From: Escherichia phage ALITA
Length of the DNA: 64,000 nucleotides
Sequence record: PP359570
Direction: 5' to 3' (one strand)
Position 1 is the first letter of the stretch. Every line of letters begins with the position of its first letter. The position numbers and the translations under genes were made by a program. Under the pieces are notes generated by a model. That model saw only the letters and a list, made by a program, of their open reading frames with translations. It had not been told where the DNA came from and searched no databases. Shown piece after piece: positions 2,931 to 61,219 of the stretch.

Positions 2931-4337
2931 ATGCCAGCACCAAAATCATGGGAACAATATAAAGAAGAATTAACACCCCTTGCTAAAAATCACAACATTC
3001 AGATTCTGGGTTATATTGGTGAATGGAAAGGGAGCAAGACTAAACTTAAGCTATCTTGCTCTGATCATGGGGAGTGGGAAAGTACCATAATCAATAGCTT
3101 TAAAACTAAAGGCGGTAAATGTTGCCCCGATTGCAATGGTCGTAGAAAAGTAACAGAAGAAAAGGAATGTATTTCCCTTGTTGATGTTGCTAAAGAAAGA
3201 GGGTTTACTTTTATAGGTCTTGCCGAAGAGTGGCGAGGTGTGCTAACAAAAATCCGCATAGTTTGCCCTAAACATGGAGAGTGGAACACCACGACCATTA
3301 GTGGTTTTAGGAAGGGACGTGGTTGTCCGGCATGTGCAAGTAATAAGCCGTTAACATGGGAAACAGAATTACCGATCTTGGAAGAGATAGCACAGAAGAA
3401 GGGGTATCAGGTGTTAGGGTACGTGGGAGAATGGAAAGGGATTGATACAAAACTTGATTTGTTGTGTCACTGTGGTAACAGATGGGATACTACAAGTATT
3501 AACAGTTTTAAACATGATCATGGTTGTCCTTTATGTGGGTATGAGAATACAAGGAAGGCACAAACAATACCCGACGATCAACATATTGCAGATTTCTTTT
3601 CTACAGGGAAATTTAAGGAAGGCACTATCTTTACCAATACAGGGAAACGTAGTTGTAGTAAAAACAAGGACATTATCTGGATGATCGAATGTCCTGTTTG
3701 CTCTCATGATGAGTATGTGCAAGCAGGTGTATGTGATGGTAAGTTTTATATGACACGTAGCGATCTTAAGGCTGGACACTTGCCCTGCCGCTGTGCAACT
3801 AACTCTCATTATACAGAAAATCAGATTACCTACAGGGTAAAAAAGGAAGTAGAAGGGAGAGGGTATGTCTGGGTAGGTTGGATCGGTAAACCGTCTATAA
3901 GACTGGGTAATTTTAAATATCTTTGTCTTGTTCATGGGGAACAAATTGGTAGTGCTTATCGCTTACTATATCAGGATAATGGTTGTCCACAATGTGCAGG
4001 TCATAGTCAGCAGCAATTGTATGTTAATGTTGTTAAAGATAATGGTATTATAGTTGCTCTTAAGTTTGGTATATCTAAAGATAGTGCTAGGAGATTAAAC
4101 ATTCAAAATAGGCGTAATATGTTTTTTATGGAGCGTATTTGTTTATATGATTTTAGTACAGTGAAGCAGTGTAAGGCTGCTGAAAGAGCTATAAAGAAAA
4201 AATTAAAAACTGGTATCTTAACAGCAAGAGAGTTGAAAGATGGTTATACAGAAACAGTAAGTGTTTCTGATTTGGAAAATCTTCAAAAAATTATTACACA
4301 ATATGGTGGCAAATTAGTATACAGTAAGGAGGTGTAA
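2931..4337 (+). CDS. putative GIY-YIG/T5orf172-family nuclease with N-terminal Zn-ribbon repeat modules (homing-endonuclease-like)
   Basis: 4-5 repeats of ~45 aa module GEW.G..TKL.L.C..HGEW.TT.I.SF....GCP.C; C-terminal LYVNVV...KFGIS...RR...DGYTET resembles GIY / KIG.T / GYTE pattern. Confidence 0.5.
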   Translation: MPAPKSWEQYKEELTPLAKNHNIQILGYIGEWKGSKTKLKLSCSDHGEWESTIINSFKTKGGKCCPDCNGRRKVTEEKECISLVDVAKERGFTFIGLAEEWRGVLTKIRIVCPKHGEWNTTTISGFRKGRGCPACASNKPLTWETELPILEEIAQKKGYQVLGYVGEWKGIDTKLDLLCHCGNRWDTTSINSFKHDHGCPLCGYENTRKAQTIPDDQHIADFFSTGKFKEGTIFTNTGKRSCSKNKDIIWMIECPVCSHDEYVQAGVCDGKFYMTRSDLKAGHLPCRCATNSHYTENQITYRVKKEVEGRGYVWVGWIGKPSIRLGNFKYLCLVHGEQIGSAYRLLYQDNGCPQCAGHSQQQLYVNVVKDNGIIVALKFGISKDSARRLNIQNRRNMFFMERICLYDFSTVKQCKAAERAIKKKLKTGILTARELKDGYTETVSVSDLENLQKIITQYGGKLVYSKEV

Positions 4338-27899: not shown

Positions 27900-28121
27900 A
27901 TGTCTGTAGTTGTAGAAGGTAGTATTGGTTTCTTAGTAGATAACCCTCACCCTTTCGTGGTTAAGGTTCATATTCAAGAAAAGGTAAGCAACAATACGTG
28001 GTTGTGCTTGTTAGATAGTAAGATACACTCTTATACAGAGGTTTATCTTCACACTTGGCAAATTGGTACGATAACAGCAGAGGATGAATTGATAATTGAA
28101 CTATATGAACGAGATCTATAG
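27900..28121 (+). CDS. hypothetical protein (73 aa)
   Basis: ORF-track ORF; taggaggtatt SD; last + strand gene before convergence point. Confidence 0.45.
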   Translation: MSVVVEGSIGFLVDNPHPFVVKVHIQEKVSNNTWLCLLDSKIHSYTEVYLHTWQIGTITAEDELIIELYERDL

Positions 28122-28197
28122 ATGACTTTATTAGAGAGTATCGTAGTGTTAATCATCTTTATCATTGTTGTCATAGGATATTTTACAGAAGACTAAA

Positions 28198-28236
28198 ATA
28201 AAGCCCCTAGAATCGCTTCTAGGGGGCTTTTGTTTG
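28198..28236. terminator. bidirectional terminator at convergence of + and - gene blocks
   Basis: aaataaAGCCCCTAGaatcgcttCTAGGGGGCTtttgttt: long palindrome flanked by A-run and T-run; approx. Confidence 0.55.
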
Positions 28237-28297
28237 CATTAGATAGGGAAACGTATTACTAAAATAAAAAGTGCGTTAGAATGCGTTACAGGAGGTT

Positions 28298-28555
28298 TTA
28301 AGAATGCATAAAATCTTCTTCAGGGCAGGTTGAGAGATAAGAGATGCACGTTGGGACAACAACAACATTATCTTTAAGGTTTGCAACCAAGCCTTTTGTA
28401 ATTCCAGCCACTGCCCCGTTAATATCTGCTTGACGGATACCGAAACCTTGTTGTGCGGATAGATAACAAAATCCCTCACCTTTCTGTTGATTATTATTGA
28501 AGTAATAAACGTAGTGCATCATAAAATGGTCTTTAACGATTTGTTCTGTGGTCAT
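28298..28555 (-). CDS. hypothetical protein (85 aa)
   Basis: ORF-track ORF, last gene of - strand block. Confidence 0.45.
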   Translation of the reverse strand: MTTEQIVKDHFMMHYVYYFNNNQQKGEGFCYLSAQQGFGIRQADINGAVAGITKGLVANLKDNVVVVPTCISYLSTCPEEDFMHS

Positions 28556-28567
28556 AATATTCTCCTA

Positions 28568-28592
28568 TAAGAAAAGGGGCTTTCGCCCCCTT
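28568..28592 (-). terminator. GC hairpin with GAAA tetraloop (terminator family of - block)
   Basis: aaggggcTTTCgcccctt on + strand reads GGGGCGAAAGCCCC + T-run on - strand; approx. Confidence 0.5.
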
Positions 28593-28599
28593 GGTCAAG

Positions 28600-29412
28600 T
28601 TACTTAGTCAAATGATCTTCTATCATTTTTATGAAAGCAGGATTGCTAAAAGCCTCTGCTGCCTTTTCTCTATAAACAAAGACTCCTCTATCTTCGTAAA
28701 GAAGAGTTTCTTCGTAATTAATTCCTGGGTTAACAACAATCATTTTTGTACCCATATTAAGTGCAGGGAATAATTCCCAATTAAAATTGATAACTTGGTT
28801 TGAACATCCTACTACAACAACCAAATCTTGCATGGTCAAAGTATCAAACAAGTGAGCCATATCTGCATACAAAGGTGCAGCCTCACCAAAAAATACAACA
28901 TTAGGCTTCACCCAGTTATAATCATCTATGTTTATACTATTGTAACCAATGTCTACCAGTGTTTTGTAATCTCCAGGATGCATACGGTAAACTACTTCAG
29001 GAAGATACCCGTGCACGTGAATAACAGAATCCCTGTCCACACCTGCTCGCTCTAATAGATCATCAACGTTTGTTGTCAAGTTTACTACTTGGTTAGGATA
29101 TTCCTTAAACCACTTTGCTATTTGAATATGTGCAGCATTAGGTTGTACATCTTTAAGCTCAACACGTCTTTTGTTATAAAATTCGTGTGTTTTGGCATAC
29201 AAATCCATACCGTTCTCGTCTACACCACCGACCACTGGAAGATCTGGAGATGTTCTCACACGATAACCTGCTTGGAAAGCTCCAATATCGCAGACCTCTT
29301 CTAAATCATATTCTTCCCACAAGGCACGACCACTATCTGTGTCTGTTCGGAACGTTCGAATCCCACTGTCTGCACTTAAACCTGCGCCACTAACAAAAAT
29401 TACTCTTCGCAT
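28600..29412 (-). CDS. Sir2-family (sirtuin-like) NAD-binding protein
   Basis: N-terminal FVSGAGLSADSGIRTFR matches GAG(I/L)S...GI..FR; IHVHG catalytic-His context; no obvious CxxC...CxxC Zn module. Confidence 0.65.
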   Translation of the reverse strand: MRRVIFVSGAGLSADSGIRTFRTDTDSGRALWEEYDLEEVCDIGAFQAGYRVRTSPDLPVVGGVDENGMDLYAKTHEFYNKRRVELKDVQPNAAHIQIAKWFKEYPNQVVNLTTNVDDLLERAGVDRDSVIHVHGYLPEVVYRMHPGDYKTLVDIGYNSINIDDYNWVKPNVVFFGEAAPLYADMAHLFDTLTMQDLVVVVGCSNQVINFNWELFPALNMGTKMIVVNPGINYEETLLYEDRGVFVYREKAAEAFSNPAFIKMIEDHLTK

Positions 29413-29969
29413 TCAATATCCTCTTCGTAATCATCATCCCAAGAAGATGCGTCGTAACGCTCTTCCTCTTCGAAATCCCAATTAATTTCTACTCCAAAAT
29501 CTAAAAACAATTTAACAATGTTTTCTGTAGAGTAGTATTTATCATAAGCGTTAGCTAGTTCCCAATACTTGTCACTCAATTTTTTATATTTAGGATCATT
29601 ATAATCATAATCTACTTTATAACCATAATCATACATCTCTTGTTCAGCTTTAAGCATAGCTTCTGGTGTAAGAAGATTAGGGAACGGACGATTTCTTTCT
29701 TTTAACTTAGAAACAATCCAGTTTGCAACATTTGCCACTTCACCATCTTGATTATCACCTAAACAACTTGCATAATCTCCATCTTCGTAAGTGCCTAAAT
29801 CCCCACAGACCACATGTACAATAGATGAATACGATCCACACGTTTCACAATCTGAAAAAGTGTCTACTGTTGTAATATCAATAGATAAAACTGGTAAAGC
29901 CATAGCTTCTTTCACACAAGCCTCCTCATATAATAACATATCATCAAAACCCATATATCCTCCACACAA
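29400..29969 (-). CDS. hypothetical acidic protein (189 aa)
   Basis: ORF-track ORF; D/E/Y-rich C-terminus; overlaps Sir2 start by 13 nt (operon). Confidence 0.5.
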   Translation of the reverse strand: MCGGYMGFDDMLLYEEACVKEAMALPVLSIDITTVDTFSDCETCGSYSSIVHVVCGDLGTYEDGDYASCLGDNQDGEVANVANWIVSKLKERNRPFPNLLTPEAMLKAEQEMYDYGYKVDYDYNDPKYKKLSDKYWELANAYDKYYSTENIVKLFLDFGVEINWDFEEEERYDASSWDDDYEEDIECEE

Positions 29970-29995
29970 ATAAAGCCCCTGATTGGGGCTTTGGT
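29970..29995 (-). terminator. GC hairpin downstream of 30009..30617
   Basis: aaagcccctgattggggcttt; approx. Confidence 0.4.
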
Positions 29996-30008
29996 TAAGT
30001 TTTACGGA

Positions 30009-30617
30009 TTATACCAGACTTTTAAGGTACTTGTCAAGGGCTTCTTGATCACCTTGACAAACATAGCAACGGAAGTCTTGAGCAGAAGGTTCTTTGTCCT
30101 CGTCCCAATCCCAATAAACAGTACCTTTATAACGTGAGCCTGGGAACTCGAAATATGCTGTATGAGTAATATGATGTGGGCCACCCCAAAACTGTATAAA
30201 AGTAAATTGAGGATACGCTGCTTTAACTGTATTTTCAAACCAAGTTTTACGATCTAATGCTTCGTTTATAAAATAAGCATGGCGTTCCATTTCATCCCAG
30301 TTTTTCCAAACGCATTTTTCATCCAGAGAAAAAACAAAATCCTCGCTGTTGAATTCATCTGTATCTTCCAAAATATCATAATCATGTGCACTAGGTATCC
30401 ACCATCCAGCTTCTAATAGTGCTTTCACGGGTACAAAACCTTTTTCAGCATATTGATCAAATTCTTTTACTCTACGTACAGTGCAGTATTCATCTTCACC
30501 ACCAATGTCCAGCAGACAAGCACCTTTGCGTCTTGCTGCAAGACCATGTGTATCAAAAACTACAACACTACCTTCACCATCTTCACGATCTACTTGATAT
30601 GCAACTTTTTGAGTCAT
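30009..30617 (-). CDS. hypothetical protein (202 aa)
   Basis: ORF-track ORF; no recognisable motif. Confidence 0.5.
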   Translation of the reverse strand: MTQKVAYQVDREDGEGSVVVFDTHGLAARRKGACLLDIGGEDEYCTVRRVKEFDQYAEKGFVPVKALLEAGWWIPSAHDYDILEDTDEFNSEDFVFSLDEKCVWKNWDEMERHAYFINEALDRKTWFENTVKAAYPQFTFIQFWGGPHHITHTAYFEFPGSRYKGTVYWDWDEDKEPSAQDFRCYVCQGDQEALDKYLKSLV

Positions 30618-30740
30618 ATTACCCCCAATGTATATGGGAAATTAACCAAAAGATAAATTCCCAAAAACACCAACCAAGAAAAGTTAATGGAATTATAAAA
30701 GCTATCAGAGCAGTCTTCCAGCCTTTCCACAATGTTTCCA

Positions 30741-31730
30741 CTATTCCTCCATACATTTAAGAATATGTGCAATGACAGGTATAGTCCAACCGTTACCTAA
30801 CATCTTATATGCTTGTGTGTTACTACTCACTTTAAAGTAGTCATCTGGCACACCTTGCAAACGGCAACACTCTTTAACGGTTAACTTTCTATAATGTACG
30901 CCTTCACTCAATTTTTCAAAAGCATCTAAATATCTTCCAGGTGGAATGTAAGCTAATAGTACGTCTTTCGGCACAGTCGTGAGGCAACGAGTTTTTTCAC
31001 TGTCCTGAACTTCCAAACAATGTACCAAACGATCAGTTTTAGATGTACTACGTTTGCCATTTTCATTAATTCTACGCCCATATATTGCTGCTGGATAAAA
31101 AACCAGTTGTCTGCGACTCTTTTCAAAATACTGTTCTATATTACCACCTTTGGCATAATTTGCATCTATGCAATAAGCCTTATCTCTGTCTACAATACTA
31201 TCATCTTCAATGATATCTTGCAACACTTCATTGGTAATATCCCAGGGTTTTATTTCCCAGTTGCACCAGTATAAACGTTGTCTATTCTGTGCCGTGAAAT
31301 CTGCGGAGTTAATGAATACGGGATCAACACCTAAGTAACTTGTGATCACGTTTTCCCACTCCACTTTCATCTTAACGTTTTCAAGCATGAACTTAACATT
31401 AGGGTTAAACTTTTTAATATGTTCAAGAATCTCAACATATTCGAAGAATAGCTTAGATCGCGGATCTTGAAAGTTCAAACCCTTACCAGAAGAAGAGAAG
31501 CCTTGACACGGACTACCACCTAACAAAAGATCAATTTCTCCCCACGGGATATCCCATTCTCTCCATTTTGTAACATCACCTAACTGAATAATATCTGGAA
31601 AATTTGCTTGGCTTTCAGCTATGGCGAATTTGTCTAATTCTGAAGCATAATATGTATCTACGTCAATACCTGCACTTTTTAGCGCAAGCATTCCTCCTGA
31701 CATGCCATCAAAAAGACTTAAAACTTTCAT
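30741..31730 (-). CDS. DNA (cytosine-5)-methyltransferase
   Basis: Motif I LSLFDGMSGG, motif IV GGSPCQGFS (PCQ), motif VI MLENV. Confidence 0.85.
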   Translation of the reverse strand: MKVLSLFDGMSGGMLALKSAGIDVDTYYASELDKFAIAESQANFPDIIQLGDVTKWREWDIPWGEIDLLLGGSPCQGFSSSGKGLNFQDPRSKLFFEYVEILEHIKKFNPNVKFMLENVKMKVEWENVITSYLGVDPVFINSADFTAQNRQRLYWCNWEIKPWDITNEVLQDIIEDDSIVDRDKAYCIDANYAKGGNIEQYFEKSRRQLVFYPAAIYGRRINENGKRSTSKTDRLVHCLEVQDSEKTRCLTTVPKDVLLAYIPPGRYLDAFEKLSEGVHYRKLTVKECCRLQGVPDDYFKVSSNTQAYKMLGNGWTIPVIAHILKCMEE

Positions 31731-32143: not shown

Positions 32144-32197
32144 GCTAAACTCCTCTTCTGTTTTTCTGTAGTTTATTCGAAAAAACTGGTGTTGTCA

Positions 32198-32223
32198 ACA
32201 AAAAACCCGCCGAAGCGGGTTTA
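32198..32223 (-). terminator. rho-independent terminator, UUCG-tetraloop family (reverse orientation)
   Basis: + strand aaaaaacccgccgaagcgggttt = reverse complement of the 2872/27831 element; downstream of 32226..32483; approx. Confidence 0.6.
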
Positions 32224-32483: not shown

Positions 32484-33004
32484 ACAATCTCCTCGTAATT
32501 GTTATTGTGTTTTACTGTCTCAACATACAATAAAGATTCCATCTGTAATACATTACCAGAAATAATAAACCCATAAGCCATTTCAGATGTGTCTATATCA
32601 TATGCCCCGTCTTCCGGTTTAGCAAAGTGTAAAACTATTTCATCTGGGTTTTCTTCATCCCATAGTTTAGAAATTTTCCGAACCAGAATGTTAGCTAAAA
32701 TAGTTGACATTCGGGATAAAGCTGTATCCTCATATCTTTTAAAACCTAGCCAATAGAGGTTAAGAATTTCTACTTCTTCTTGTGTTAAGTTTTTGTCTAA
32801 AGTAATCAGATCTGTAGAGCACGGCGTTTTTGTTGAACCTACTGTTACAAAACCTGGAGTGTTATGAAAAACAATCTTAACTTTATCACGTATAAAGTTT
32901 AAACCTTGTGCCTCAACTATATATTGTATTGTAGGTACAATATCGTTTGTTACATCAATAAAACTATCTTTAATGACGCTTATATTATTTCTGGACAATA
33001 CCAT
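32480..33004 (-). CDS. hypothetical protein (174 aa)
   Basis: ORF-track ORF; 4-nt overlap with downstream gene. Confidence 0.5.
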   Translation of the reverse strand: MVLSRNNISVIKDSFIDVTNDIVPTIQYIVEAQGLNFIRDKVKIVFHNTPGFVTVGSTKTPCSTDLITLDKNLTQEEVEILNLYWLGFKRYEDTALSRMSTILANILVRKISKLWDEENPDEIVLHFAKPEDGAYDIDTSEMAYGFIISGNVLQMESLLYVETVKHNNNYEEIV

Positions 33005-33563
33005 TCTCCTCTAAGATAGGCTTAATAAATTCGAAAATTTGTTTTTTACTTTTACCTCGAATATTAAAACAAGGAACATTAAACTTTTTAGCCAACATCC
33101 AAGCTGTTCTTGTACCACCTAAAGGATCTCCATTTTTATCTGTATTTGCACAAGCCAAAAGAAAACAAGATGGTTTTGGATTCTCAAGATCTCTTCCAAG
33201 AACTTGGTGGATATTTCTTTGATGTAATTTTTTAGCACCTTGAGATAATCTGTCCCAAGCTGGATGCAATTCTTTTGCATATTGCAAGGTTAAAGCATAG
33301 TTTACACTATCTGGTCTGTCAAGAACAATAACCTCTCCCTCTATTTCATTACCTTTAAACGAGAGCCAAGGGATGTATATTTCTTTCTTTGTATTGTTCC
33401 CACTATCATATACCCCGCATTCAAATGCGGAATCTGCACCTTCTGCTTTACCAGATCGCAAAATGAACCATGTAGATAGCCATTTTGCAACAGATACCAT
33501 AGTATCCCATTCTTCGTCTGTAATATCTCTGCTACCAACACCTGTGTAGAATAAATCGCTCAT
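32985..33563 (-). CDS. DprA/SLOG-family Rossmann-fold protein (192 aa)
   Basis: Track ORF trimmed to MSDLFYTGVGSRD (ggagaa SD); GVGSR, GKAEGADSAFE, HQRN..Q, GGTRTAW..A....PCF resemble DprA/Smf blocks. Confidence 0.4.
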   Translation of the reverse strand: MSDLFYTGVGSRDITDEEWDTMVSVAKWLSTWFILRSGKAEGADSAFECGVYDSGNNTKKEIYIPWLSFKGNEIEGEVIVLDRPDSVNYALTLQYAKELHPAWDRLSQGAKKLHQRNIHQVLGRDLENPKPSCFLLACANTDKNGDPLGGTRTAWMLAKKFNVPCFNIRGKSKKQIFEFIKPILEENGIVQK

Positions 33564-33573
33564 GGTTTTCTCC

Positions 33574-33894
33574 TTAACAAGTAATATTGGGAGTAACAAT
33601 TGGATTAACAATTGGAGTGATAGGGTACGTAAACCAAGGGCTTCCAATTTCCCAAGGATTATAAGGTCTACGAGGATCAAATGGAGGAGTTACTTCAGGC
33701 TTTTTCCAAATCTCCGCTAGTTGTTTCTTCCATTTATCCCTTGCTGTCTCATTATCTTCATCCAACTGTTCATCATTATCTTTTATTTCTGGTTTTGGAA
33801 ATAAAAGCTCTTTGACTAACTCAACATCTTCCGTCTCAATAGTAGTTTCTTTCGTAAGTTCTCCTACTGTTTCTTTAATTGTGATTTTATACAT
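33574..33894 (-). CDS. hypothetical protein (106 aa)
   Basis: ORF-track ORF; Pro/Trp-rich C-terminal half. Confidence 0.45.
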   Translation of the reverse strand: MYKITIKETVGELTKETTIETEDVELVKELLFPKPEIKDNDEQLDEDNETARDKWKKQLAEIWKKPEVTPPFDPRRPYNPWEIGSPWFTYPITPIVNPIVTPNITC

Positions 33895-34640
33895 TAGTCC
33901 TCCTCTAAAGTAGAATAAAATTGTAACGTATTTGAATCATCAAAATATGCAAAGGTTAAATTACCATTGAAGCAAGATCCTGTGTCCATATATACCCTAT
34001 TACTGCTAATCATAGGTTTAGGAACATAAGAATGCCCGTGAAATACATAATCTACTCCTGAAACCCTAGGAAGAAGAATCCCTTCAAGTGCGCAATCTAT
34101 CATATCACGATCCCACATTAAAGATTCTGTGAATCGAGAAACTTGCTCTTTATTCATATTCAAACAAAATGGCAAAACTTCTGTCACTGGTAAATGTTCC
34201 AAAACTGAAGGATACCCACCGTGAATAAAGCCTAGTTTCATATTACGATAATTGACAACAAGTACAACAGGTAAATCTTCTAGCATCAAAGCAAGAGCAG
34301 TTGCACCCTCTTCTCCACACTCGTCTAGAACTGTATGGCCTCCGTTCTGAAACCAACATTCGTAATATCGTCTATCACCTTCTAGCAACCCTTTAATCAT
34401 CATATCTTCATGGTTCCCACGAATACCATAACGATTTAGCTTTCTGGTGAATTCAACAACACAACGAAAATTCTGCTTGCCGCGATCTGTAAGATCTCCT
34501 AAAGATACAACAACATCTTGATCTCGGATACCTAAAGTATTAACACCTTTCTGGTACAAATCAAAGCAACCATGTAAATCACCAATAATAAACAGGTCTT
34601 GATCATCTTTTACACTAATTTCTTGATATACTAGCATCAA
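33894..34640 (-). CDS. PPP-family Ser/Thr protein phosphatase (lambda-phosphatase-like)
   Basis: GDLHG, GDLTDRG and GNHE signature motifs in order. Confidence 0.8.
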   Translation of the reverse strand: MMLVYQEISVKDDQDLFIIGDLHGCFDLYQKGVNTLGIRDQDVVVSLGDLTDRGKQNFRCVVEFTRKLNRYGIRGNHEDMMIKGLLEGDRRYYECWFQNGGHTVLDECGEEGATALALMLEDLPVVLVVNYRNMKLGFIHGGYPSVLEHLPVTEVLPFCLNMNKEQVSRFTESLMWDRDMIDCALEGILLPRVSGVDYVFHGHSYVPKPMISSNRVYMDTGSCFNGNLTFAYFDDSNTLQFYSTLEED

Positions 34641-34973: not shown

Positions 34974-35546
34974 TTAATGTGTTAATGAAACTGCGTAACT
35001 AAACACAGGTTCAGATATTACATCGGCTACAGTAATAAAAACGTCTTCGTCTTGAGTTGTTTCTACACGACATACAGTTACACCATTCACCACGAATTCA
35101 ACGCAATGTGGAATATCTTCACAAACGAAGGTAGTGTAAGTAACACCCAAAGCATCATACAAAGATTTAACAGTGTTTGCAAGTGCCGCAGTTTCTTCTT
35201 TTTCTGAGACAATGAATGCTGTAACAACAAGATTGTTTGCATAGTTTAGACTGTCCTCTATAGCCAATGATTTACAAGGTAGTAATGCAAAATATTTACC
35301 TGGTTTAATCAGACCTGCTTCCCATTGATTCAAAATTGCTTGGGATGGTTTAGTAATATAAAACAGATTTTCACTTGGGTTATCAATATTACTTCTGGCG
35401 ATACAACGTGAAGGATTATTAATATCAAACACATGATCAAAATCTACACAAACTGGTAAACTGAAAGGTGTGAATTTTTTACCTAATAATCCTACTGCTG
35501 ACAATATGTTTGCTGTGCTTATCTTCCCGTTAAAAGCTAAACGCAT
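34974..35546 (-). CDS. hypothetical protein (190 aa)
   Basis: ORF-track ORF. Confidence 0.5.
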   Translation of the reverse strand: MRLAFNGKISTANILSAVGLLGKKFTPFSLPVCVDFDHVFDINNPSRCIARSNIDNPSENLFYITKPSQAILNQWEAGLIKPGKYFALLPCKSLAIEDSLNYANNLVVTAFIVSEKEETAALANTVKSLYDALGVTYTTFVCEDIPHCVEFVVNGVTVCRVETTQDEDVFITVADVISEPVFSYAVSLTH

Positions 35547-59328: not shown

Positions 59329-59733
59329 TTATTGTAGCTTAAGTGAACTGCGAAGACGTTCCTCTTGCTGATCACGAATATGTTGTGGAACCTCATGAAT
59401 TGAATCGTTACCGTGCCTATTCTCCACAACTAAAGAAATAACTTGATAACCAAACTCTTCAGCAAGAGTTAAATAAGGTTTAAGTTCTTTTTCTGTAGTA
59501 GAGGTATTAGAAACAATAATCTTTTCAACACCATACTGCATATATTTTTGTACTTTGACACGACACCATTGGTGTGCTTTATGGATATTCTCTTGTTTCC
59601 ACTCATACACACCATCTTCAGTGTAGTGGTATTGATCTGCCTCACAAATAGGCCAATGATTTTCAGAGATAATTTCTGCTACTGTAGATTTACCTGCACC
59701 TGAAACACCACGTAAAATGATAAGTTGTTTCAT
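59329..59733 (-). CDS. P-loop polynucleotide-kinase-like protein
   Basis: MKQLIILRGVSGAGKSTVAE Walker A at N-terminus as in T4 Pnk kinase domain; no phosphatase domain attached. Confidence 0.5.
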   Translation of the reverse strand: MKQLIILRGVSGAGKSTVAEIISENHWPICEADQYHYTEDGVYEWKQENIHKAHQWCRVKVQKYMQYGVEKIIVSNTSTTEKELKPYLTLAEEFGYQVISLVVENRHGNDSIHEVPQHIRDQQEERLRSSLKLQ

Positions 59734-60666
59734 TTAGCCTCCAAAGAAGTTTTCTATTTCTTTACGTCGCTCTTGTGGATCGAGAGCAGCCCATTGAGCC
59801 TTCGTAAATTTATTTCGAAGCCATTCTAGCAAAGTATAATATTCTTCGTCAACAATTTGTTTAGCATTGTTTGGGTTGTCCCAAATCATATCCCACTTCT
59901 TATTGCCACCACGCATAAGGAATTTCTTAGCAAGATAGTATGGTGACTTAATCTTTAAGAGTAAGTTAAACGGATAGTTTGTTTCACGAACAACAAAGCC
60001 TTCGTGTCTACAATGTTTAGACATTTCAACAACATCTGAAAATTTAATCATTGGATAAACTTCAGGACGTTTAAATTTTGTAATAGATGCAATCCCATCA
60101 AGAACACCTTCAGGTAACATGAAACTTGTCCCATCAAGATTTTGAATTCTTGCTCCAATTAAGTATGCGCCTGGTTCTTCTTCGACAATATGTGGATCAG
60201 AAGGATCACAGATTTCAAAAAGGAAAGTTGCTTTTGCACTTTCTGTCCACTTAATGAAATACTCTATGTCATCACACTCGGAAACAATACGGTTCTTGGC
60301 AATAGTTGCAAAGTCTGATTCTAGGCTTCCTGTTGTTGATACAACAAGTTTCCCTTTGTACACACCTACAGATGCCATAAAACCGTTTACTTTACGGACA
60401 GCATCTACAAATTCATCTCTTGGAAGATCTGTACCATTCTCAAAACGATTAAAGATTTTAGTAAAAGGCCAAATAACAATATTATCTTCTGAGTCAACAA
60501 CCAACCCACGACAATCTAAAAGTCGTTTGTCAACGTTCCACAAGTTATCCCAGAATACATTGTTTTTGTATTTAAGTACAGCAAGACCAGCATACTCTCC
60601 AGATTTAACTTCTTTTTTATGCACTAAACCTTTTGCAATCAGGTCATCACAATTGAACTTAGCCAC
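59734..60666 (-). CDS. RNA ligase, T4 Rnl1-like
   Basis: LLDCRGLVVD...PFTKIFNRFENG, candidate motif I VRKVNGFM, later LKIKSPYY parallel T4 Rnl1 LECRGIMFE...PMEKFFNLNEN, KEDG, FKIKSDWY (from memory). Confidence 0.55.
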   Translation of the reverse strand: MAKFNCDDLIAKGLVHKKEVKSGEYAGLAVLKYKNNVFWDNLWNVDKRLLDCRGLVVDSEDNIVIWPFTKIFNRFENGTDLPRDEFVDAVRKVNGFMASVGVYKGKLVVSTTGSLESDFATIAKNRIVSECDDIEYFIKWTESAKATFLFEICDPSDPHIVEEEPGAYLIGARIQNLDGTSFMLPEGVLDGIASITKFKRPEVYPMIKFSDVVEMSKHCRHEGFVVRETNYPFNLLLKIKSPYYLAKKFLMRGGNKKWDMIWDNPNNAKQIVDEEYYTLLEWLRNKFTKAQWAALDPQERRKEIENFFGG

Positions 60667-60667
60667 C

Positions 60668-61219
60668 TTAATCTCCTTTGATTATCTTATGATGATCTAC
60701 AACAATAATATCACGCTTATCCATAATAGAGATGATTTCGTCAAAATGCAAGATTTTCCCGTGTGCATCCCAACCAACATCCAACATTTTCCCATACAAA
60801 TGATCAGGGAATGATCCGTGAGAGTGTCCGTGTAGCATGATTGATCCATGCCCTTGTTTATTCCAGGCAGCCATAGGGTAATGACTTAAGACGAAGAACA
60901 GCTTCTGATATTTCACTTCGTCATAATACACAACTTCTCCATACTCTGCAAGCACTTTTCTGTGTTTACTGTAATCATGGTTCCCAACACAGTAAGTAAT
61001 ATCCCCTTGGAGACGGGAAGCAATCTTACGGGTATCTTCTTCAGTCCCGAAACAGAAGTCCCCAAGATGGTACATCTTTACTCCTGGTGTTGTGGCACAT
61101 TTATTCCATGCTTCGATCAGTGCTTCTGTCATATGCTCCATATCTTCCCACGGGCGATATTCAGGAGCAAACTCTCGGATACGTTTGTGCATAAAATGCA
61201 AATCACTTGTAATAAACAT
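60668..61219 (-). CDS. calcineurin-like metallophosphoesterase
   Basis: SDLHFMH (D.H), HLGDF (GD), VGNHDY (GNHD), LHGHSHG. Confidence 0.75.
   Translation of the reverse strand: MFITSDLHFMHKRIREFAPEYRPWEDMEHMTEALIEAWNKCATTPGVKMYHLGDFCFGTEEDTRKIASRLQGDITYCVGNHDYSKHRKVLAEYGEVVYYDEVKYQKLFFVLSHYPMAAWNKQGHGSIMLHGHSHGSFPDHLYGKMLDVGWDAHGKILHFDEIISIMDKRDIIVVDHHKIIKGD

Follow-up and report, generated by a model that had tools for sequence, protein, structure and literature searches.

The 64,000-nucleotide stretch of Escherichia phage ALITA analysed here (PP359570; hereafter the window) encodes, on its minus strand, a 270-residue phage sirtuin (28600..29412; orthologue of phi92 gp038) with a CobB/SIRT5-type catalytic core and no cysteine ligands in residues 135-172, the usual site of the CxxC...CxxC zinc ribbon. 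The protein is almost certainly a sirtuin of the deacylase type; with moderate confidence, we infer that its activity is lysine deacylation of host or phage proteins, dependent on nicotinamide adenine dinucleotide (NAD+). The uncertain step is the substrate, and hence the biological role. The enzyme would be the Justusliebigvirus member of the phage sirtuin family, catalytically intact and of class III type (CobB/SIRT5-like). Its gene, the latter of two in one unit, would be read by the host RNA polymerase starting at a consensus sigma-70 promoter, and its translation would be coupled to that of a lineage-specific acidic, Cys-containing protein. Early in infection, it would use NAD+ to strip lysine acyl groups (acetyl and, given the Y79-x-x-R82 pair, probably succinyl or malonyl) from host or phage proteins, yielding nicotinamide and O-acyl-ADP-ribose; the host acylation state would thereby be reset in favour of the phage. 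A megablast search with window positions 28000..31000 matched 110 phage records, headed by Escherichia phage vB-Eco-KMB37 (98.8% identity, full length); the other relatives include Paula, VEcB, alia, and EmilieFrey, and all are Justusliebigvirus. By these matches, the window is assigned to a Justusliebigvirus coliphage (Stephanstirmvirinae; a phi92-like virulent myovirus), which agrees with an earlier reading of the same DNA from its letters alone (the sequence-only reading) that had placed the gene in a virulent phage.

The sequence-only reading had also recognised a sirtuin at 28600..29412 from its GAG(I/L)S..SGI..FR motif and catalytic-His context, and profile searches bear this out. The protein matches Pfam SIR2 (PF02146; 81.1 bits, gathering cut-off 24, E = 1.3e-22) and PHROG 2162, "Sir2 (NAD-dependent deacetylase)" (E = 1.3e-105; residues 1-269 over profile positions 10-270 of 277); as profile scores, these family matches far exceed chance. 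Its best PDB sequence match is E. coli CobB (1s5p, E = 1.5e-18), to which it is 32% identical over 213 residues. The sirtuin motifs are GAGLS (residues 9-13), SGIRTFR (16-22), TTNVDD (113-118), H134-G135, KPNVVFFGE (169-177), and GCS (202-204). Shared with CobB and with human and zebrafish SIRT5 are the GAGxS...SGIRTFR loop, the catalytic His, the nicotinamide-pocket N/D, the FGE loop, and the Y-x-x-R pair; in the pairwise alignment, H134 corresponds to H147, the catalytic residue of CobB, and Y79/R82 to its Y92/R95. The Y-x-x-R pair is a class III signature, which recognises succinyl and malonyl carboxylates in SIRT5 and CobB. Across 120 homologues (55-92% identity), residues G9, A10, G11, S13, F21, R22, N115, D117, H134, S204, N228, Y79, and R82 are invariant (120/120). 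This invariance of NAD-pocket, catalytic, and acyl-pocket residues argues for purifying selection on an active enzyme.

An AlphaFold2 model of the sirtuin (predicted local distance difference test score (pLDDT) 91.7, predicted template modelling score 0.88; 65 homologues in the alignment) matches the two-domain fold, Rossmann plus small domain, of solved sirtuins. In a Foldseek search of the PDB with this model, CobB (1s5p, 6rxj) ranked first, with a template modelling score of 0.86 (normalised to CobB), followed by Sir2Af1, SIRT5, Sir2Af2, Hst2, and SIRT2; all of the top 50 matches are canonical deacylase sirtuins. Structure-comparison values for the same model were 22.2 for Sir2Af1, 19.1 for PfSir2A, and 17.6-18.1 for SIRT4, SIRT1, Hst2, and SIRT2. 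Structure prediction, which had been named as a check in the sequence-only reading, thus returns a sirtuin fold among deacylase neighbours, with the zinc ligands gone.

The protein contains only two cysteines (C41 and C203), neither of them in residues 135-172, so that the lack of a CxxC...CxxC module noted from the sequence is real. The same residues are predicted as three beta strands (pLDDT ~95); the confident prediction of a ribbon-shaped, three-stranded module indicates a canonical small domain minus its ligands, rather than an absent domain. In this small domain, the shape of the zinc ribbon would be kept, and the four Cys ligands would be replaced by hydrophobic and aromatic packing. 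In all 120 close homologues, the ribbon region holds either no Cys or one. HMMER, run exhaustively against 1.84 billion representatives, recovered 2175 relatives; among the matches listed, those of normal length include 84 more distant relatives with three or more ribbon Cys and 46 relatives with at most one. Between the half-sites, Cys-bearing and Cys-less relatives share a D-I-G-Y motif. When the zinc-bearing relatives are aligned with the phage sirtuin, their first CxxC falls at its Y142/P146, and their second in a deletion adjoining its conserved D-D-Y-x-W. In a rough neighbour-joining tree computed with the ribbon columns excluded, at least 11 changes of Cys state were counted, with the close clade (27 tips) entirely Cys-less; this points to recurrent loss of the ribbon ligands in the sirtuin family. 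The midpoint root of this rough tree was uninformative on the polarity of zinc loss. At the TQNID position, among the matches listed, 32 of the 46 Cys-less relatives carry Thr, and 69 of the 84 zinc-bearing relatives carry Gln. Across the wider family, the Thr/Gln state in the NAD pocket thus co-varies with the Cys-less/Cys4 state of the ribbon in the small domain. Cluster look-ups for the Cys4-bearing relatives gave metagenome contigs only, in which phage and bacterial origin are not separable.

Neither the missing zinc ligands nor the clade of phage sirtuins is new to the literature (Skliros et al., 2016; Iyer et al., 2022). The Sir2/CobB proteins of Vibrio phages phiSt2, phiGrn1, and KVP40 were modelled on CobB, with the zinc ligand absent from the finger domain and the catalytic His conserved; it was proposed that salt bridges replace the zinc, and that the role is activation of host acetyl-CoA synthetase (Acs), with a link drawn to phage NAMPT, and T5 and others were listed as carriers (Skliros et al., 2016; PMC5107563). 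The ALITA sirtuin belongs to the same family (37-40% identity to the nt-1, R11Z, and K575 proteins) but differs from the KVP40-type proteins in phage lineage and host. A survey of viral NAD/ADP-ribose systems placed most viral sirtuins in one clade (Iyer, Burroughs, Anantharaman, Aravind, 2022; PMC9503650), which corresponds here to PHROG 2162; the ALITA protein is a full-length member and shares 47-62% identity with those proteins of rV5-like, Mydovirus, and T5-like phages that the survey names.

From the missing CxxC module, the sequence-only reading had suggested a defence-type NADase, with takeover, superinfection exclusion, or counter-defence as possible roles; NAD+ would then be hydrolysed for host shutdown, superinfection exclusion, or as a defence-like module, with the acidic neighbour as an inhibitor or DNA mimic. 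Like the SIR2 NADases of bacterial defence (ThsA, DSR1/DSR2, SIR2-HerA/Nezha, SIR2-APAZ/pAgo, Avs5), the phage sirtuin has a Rossmann-type core with His and Asn and lacks the Cys4 site. Sirtuins in general are known for some NAD+ glycohydrolase side activity, and the tight coupling to the acidic partner, with its overlapping gene, would also suit this proposal. However, the Pfam family of the defence enzymes is SIR2_2 (PF13289), to which the phage sirtuin gave no match; of the two Pfam families, it matched PF02146 only. PADLOC, applied to the sirtuin and to four of its neighbours, gave no match at E<0.001; for the sirtuin, the sole match was sub-significant (PDC-S65, over 37 residues, E = 0.0066). 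In the structure comparison, the defence SIR2 proteins trail far behind the deacylases (PsSIR2 13.4, HerA-Sir2 12.5, ThsA 11.6, Avs5 10.6 and 9.4). The defence enzymes are sensor-fused or sensor-paired and oligomerising, whereas the phage protein is a stand-alone core of 270 residues in which both the ribbon-shaped module and the FGE peptide-binding loop are preserved; a search for partner domains (SLOG, HerA, pAgo/APAZ, STAND, TIR) found the sirtuin unfused and its neighbours without Pfam or PADLOC domains. Close relatives encode NAMPT and phosphoribosyl pyrophosphate (PRPP) synthetase, and such NAD+ salvage is a poor fit with deliberate depletion. Furthermore, T5-like, rV5-like, Mydovirus, and Vibrio phages have the sirtuin and lack its acidic partner, which rules out an obligate toxin/antidote pairing. 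The sirtuin thus belongs to the deacylase branch as an enzyme that is intact and under selection. The inference of a defence NADase from Cys loss is unsupported, and profile and structure comparisons contradict it; we regard this as the least probable of the activities weighed here, with a very small chance of being correct.

Several observations weigh against lysine deacylation of host or phage proteins, even so. In place of the Gln of TQNID, GTS, and the following substrate loop V-Y-P of CobB and SIRT5, the phage sirtuin has Thr (T114), GCS (C203), and V-I-N-F, respectively, and the Gln-to-Thr and V-I-N-F changes could alter substrate use. It also differs from CobB and SIRT5 in the absence of the zinc-module Cys and in an approximately 30-residue variable insertion (46-75) within the helical subdomain; from CobB, it differs further in being phage-encoded and, by prediction, expressed early. 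The NCBIfam CobB models score far below their cut-offs (NF001753, 106.9 vs. 243; NF040867, 87 vs. 320), which marks the protein as a member of a distinct clade rather than a CobB orthologue or copy. The host already encodes CobB, and this enzyme reportedly restricts both T4 and lambda (Koyuncu et al., 2014; PMC4271551), so that the gain to the phage from an extra deacylase is not obvious. In Vequintavirus, moreover, the sirtuin lies inside an RNA ligase/kinase/phosphoesterase cluster, the basis of a competing RNA-repair hypothesis (PMC9503650). In the literature searched, we found no experimental study, whether enzymology or genetics, of any phage sirtuin. If the ALITA sirtuin does reprogramme the host acyl-proteome, this would constitute a new layer of phage takeover, in contrast to the reported antiviral role of host CobB. 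The T114 codon lies at window positions 29071-29073, and Thr is present there in 120/120 close homologues.

Two published hypotheses thus compete for the family: deacylation of host enzymes and removal of RNA 2'-phosphates. Under the latter, a KptA-like role in RNA repair was proposed from the genes that surround the sirtuin in jumbo phages, rV5/Mydo-like phages, and T5-like SP15 (Iyer et al., 2022; PMC9503650): the sirtuin would move the ADP-ribose of NAD+ to the 2'-phosphate of broken or religated RNA (KptA/Tpt1-like) and, together with RNA ligase, kinase, and phosphoesterase, mend tRNAs cut by host anticodon nucleases. The neighbourhood is confirmed here for Vequintavirus CarlMeissner, in which an RNA ligase gene and a small (116-residue) gene precede the sirtuin, with polynucleotide kinase and phosphoesterase genes divergent. 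The window, too, has genes of these kinds at 59329..61219 on the minus strand: an AAA_33 polynucleotide-kinase-like protein (134 residues), an Rnl1-type RNA ligase (310 residues, PF09511), and a calcineurin-like phosphoesterase (183 residues). In addition, the invariant Y79/R82/R83 could in principle hold a phosphate rather than a carboxylate. However, the same three genes that flank the sirtuin in rV5-like phages lie 30 kb from it in the window, in a separate unit, and the ALITA sirtuin, under its own promoter and terminator, is not beside RNA ligase, kinase, or phosphoesterase; unlike in the published clade neighbourhoods, it is paired with a Stephanstirmvirinae-specific acidic protein. In Epseptimavirus IrmaTschudi, the sirtuin follows anaerobic ribonucleotide reductase genes and small unknowns.

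The distribution of the two genes bears on the same question. By tblastn, the sirtuin was found in 983 of 50,697 phage records (~2%), with identities of 65-69% in Phapecoctavirus, 52-62% in T5-like Demerecviridae, ~56% in Mydovirus-like phages, 47-48% in Vequintavirinae, and 37-40% in KVP40-like Vibrio phages; further carriers are Justusliebigvirus, Salmonella phage 7-11, and some jumbo phages. The Rnl1-type ligase was found in 661 phage records. Among Salmonella phages, it occurs in 15 records against 289 with the sirtuin; among Pseudomonas phages, 175 records have the ligase and at most 6 the sirtuin, Pseudomonas phages being outside the ten commonest carriers. These counts indicate that ligase and sirtuin are largely uncoupled at the genome level, and T5-like phages have the sirtuin and lack the ligase. 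The sirtuin clade is uniformly acidic (isoelectric point 4.6-6.0, median 4.9), unlike typical RNA-end enzymes, a charge more in keeping with action on proteins than on RNA. No sirtuin is known to have RNA as a substrate. Set against these points, the rV5-type neighbourhood and the invariant basic pair leave RNA repair an unlikely, though live, alternative for the ALITA sirtuin. Co-occurrence with NAMPT was also considered as a functional clue and was dropped: NAMPT is found in 2034 phage records, including many sirtuin-less groups, and is not specific to sirtuin carriers. Among the annotations, the sirtuin homologue of Pectobacterium phage DU_PP_V (60% identity) is entered as "tail assembly protein" in both NCBI and UniRef, an evident misannotation.

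The relatives' records label the sirtuin gene "Sir2-like protein/transferase", "sirtuin family protein", or "NAD-dependent protein deacetylase". The "Sir2-like transferase" label, found in phi92, Paula, and VEcB, would accord with protein mono-ADP-ribosylation, by which a host target would be modified for takeover in parallel to T4 Alt/ModA/ModB. The sirtuin fold is able to support ADP-ribosyl transfer (SirTM/SIRT4/SIRT6-like), and the predicted early expression from a host-type promoter would suit such a role. The class M sirtuin SirTM, which is macrodomain-linked and has a role in conflict and stress systems, shares the fold, with structure-comparison values of 14.8-15.2. Rack et al. are said to have reported in 2015 that SirTM lost the deacylase catalytic His; in contrast, the phage sirtuin keeps both this His and the class III Y-x-x-R pair. 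It also differs from SirTM in having no macrodomain neighbour: the two-gene unit contains no macrodomain partner, and the neighbours lack Pfam domains. ADP-ribosyl transfer is also less in keeping with the structure and with the NAD+ salvage genes of these genomes. We therefore give ADP-ribosyl transfer a lower standing, as a distinctly unlikely activity, and retain lysine deacylation as the preferred reading.

The sirtuin would be co-transcribed and translationally coupled with the acidic, Tyr-rich protein (184 residues; 29400..29954, minus strand; orthologue of phi92 gp039, PHROG 9509), as predicted from the layout of the unit. Along the minus strand, the order is a promoter (30037..30008), a hairpin (29992..29972), the acidic protein, the sirtuin, and a terminator-like hairpin (28592..28574); the promoter and terminator calls are consensus matches. 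The sigma-70 consensus promoter (30008..30037; TTGACA, 18-nucleotide spacer, TG-TATAAT, 12/12) lies within the last codons of the 202-residue gene upstream and is directed into the pair. The GC-rich hairpin AAAGCCCC...GGGGCTTT (29972..29992, minus strand), approximately 9 nucleotides downstream of the predicted transcription start (near 30001), would either terminate transcription from upstream or form a 5' stem-loop in the acidic-protein/sirtuin mRNA. A GAGGA Shine-Dalgarno sequence for the sirtuin (29419..29423, minus strand; from alignment) lies 6 nucleotides upstream of its ATG, within the tail codons of the acidic protein. Directly after the sirtuin stop, an intrinsic terminator-like hairpin with a T-run (28574..28592, minus strand) closes the two-gene unit, and Paula annotates this site as a terminator. 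Phapecoctavirus vB_EcoM_01 and Klebsiella phage FKP3 have the same arrangement: an 11/12 promoter with an extended -10, a hairpin, the acidic protein, the sirtuin, and a terminator. In FKP3, an HNH homing endonuclease gene (3354-4004) is inserted exactly between the otherwise overlapping acidic-protein and sirtuin genes, with an overlap to each, and the promoter and terminator around the pair are kept. The common promoter-to-terminator order in three lineages points to a conserved two-gene unit, which by prediction is probably early-expressed. Conservation of this layout across Stephanstirmvirinae, as judged from these genomes, is a new detail of the present analysis, and the promoter-to-terminator unit is available for deletion or expression, with the sirtuin being of deacylase rather than defence type.

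The operon of the sequence-only reading, which had comprised the sirtuin, the acidic protein, and the 202-residue gene, stands for the first two. The 202-residue gene (30009..30617, minus strand; phi92 gp041, PHROG 8514; no assigned function) is set apart by the promoter and hairpin of the pair, upstream of which it lies, and belongs to the unit of a Dcm methylase. Homologues of its product occur in Vibrio, Pseudomonas, and Xanthomonas phages without a sirtuin, and no Pfam or other domain annotation was found for it in any relative. The sirtuin itself occurs without the acidic and 202-residue proteins in most carrier lineages. Mechanistically, co-expression of the acidic protein is the sole link of either neighbour to the sirtuin. 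A second terminator-hairpin/promoter pair (32203-32222 and 32170-32198, minus strand; TTGACA, 17 nucleotides, TAAACT) lies directly after a bidirectional terminator and heads the unit of a 136-residue gene, the Dcm methylase, and the 202-residue gene; the like layouts at both promoters suggest an early-promoter architecture that may recur in this phage.

The acidic gene had been described as a D/E/Y-rich, 189-residue open reading frame overlapping the sirtuin by 13 nucleotides, and this description holds with two refinements. The mechanical open reading frame (29400..29969, minus strand) encodes 189 residues with 23.8% D+E, 9.0% Tyr, and an isoelectric point of 4.05; most likely, however, the protein starts at ATG 29954 (184 residues, MGFDD...), as in the annotation of relatives, rather than at TTG 29969. 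The 13-nucleotide overlap of its stop with the sirtuin ATG depends on a single base: the minus-strand codon at 29426-29428 is GAA here and TAA in Paula and EmilieFrey. In the TAA form, the acidic protein is 8 codons shorter, leaving an 11-nucleotide spacer that holds the GAGGA site of the sirtuin; the GAA form adds an 8-residue tail that includes the invariant C-terminal Cys of the family. The long form is probably ancestral, because the divergent homologues (39-54% identity) all retain an EEEC-type C-terminal tail with this Cys, the long form occurs in a cluster of 183 near-identical sequences, and the Phapecoctavirus acidic-protein and sirtuin genes also overlap, by 16 nucleotides. The truncated alleles of Paula and EmilieFrey may be partial loss-of-function variants.

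The invariant features of the acidic protein are C36-x-x-C39, C64, and C182, with SDCETCG, GDLG, and A-x-C motifs and a C-terminal Cys. The protein is limited to Stephanstirmvirinae, apart from weak homologues in a few jumbo phages; in Serratia phage BF, the distant homologue is not beside the sirtuin of that phage, and the protein was not detected near T5-like or rV5-like sirtuins. Between genera, its identity is 36-38% compared with 65-69% for the sirtuin, by which measure it evolves much faster than the sirtuin. A model of the acidic protein (pLDDT 84.5) has a folded alpha/beta core and a disordered acidic tail. A structure search with this model gave no informative neighbours, including none that is DNA-mimic-like; nothing supports the proposed DNA mimic or inhibitor, and this counts further against NAD+ hydrolysis by the sirtuin. 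In BASEL records, 29400-29954 and 34974-35546 are both called "putative aminoacyl-tRNA synthetase". The sole support found for this label is a sub-threshold match of the acidic protein to PhetRS_B1 (15.4 bits, cut-off 26.8), and the 34974-35546 product has no Pfam match and is not similar to the acidic protein; the synthetase labels are probably over-annotations in both cases.

Given the conserved pairing, it is conceivable, though highly unlikely, that the acidic Cys protein and the zinc-less sirtuin form a dedicated two-component early module, in which the partner gates the sirtuin or redirects it to a non-canonical substrate. The CxxC, two further Cys, and acidic tail of the partner would then bind the sirtuin; candidate substrates would be host proteins bound to nucleic acid, or RNA 2'-phosphates (per Iyer et al.). 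If true, this would give the sirtuin an activity in phages not seen in cells. As the sirtuin of the window belongs to a known phage gene family, already annotated and discussed, the residual interest lies in a very common phage enzyme and in its conserved pairing, within a subfamily, with an acidic, Cys-bearing partner.

Downstream of the sirtuin terminator, the minus strand encodes an 85-residue protein with no assigned function (28298..28555; phi92 gp037, PHROG 15991). A bidirectional terminator hairpin (28204..28225, both strands) marks the convergence of the minus- and plus-strand gene blocks; GC skew changes sign at this site, and Paula annotates a terminator there on both strands. Upstream on the minus strand are a Dcm-type C5 cytosine methyltransferase (30741-31730; PF00145, E = 1.5e-43), a protein called DprA-like in relatives that has no Pfam match (32985-33566), and a calcineurin-like protein of Ser/Thr-phosphatase type (33894-34640; PF00149). 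In the close relatives, the PRPP synthetase and NAMPT genes lie approximately 3 kb past the right end of the window. Across these genes, several "Campylobacter phage" records (MG065645, MG065650, MG065656, and others; host C. jejuni) are ~95% identical to E. coli Justusliebigvirus, Phapecoctavirus, and rV5-like genomes, which suggests that the hosts may be mislabelled or that the data set may contain coliphage contamination.

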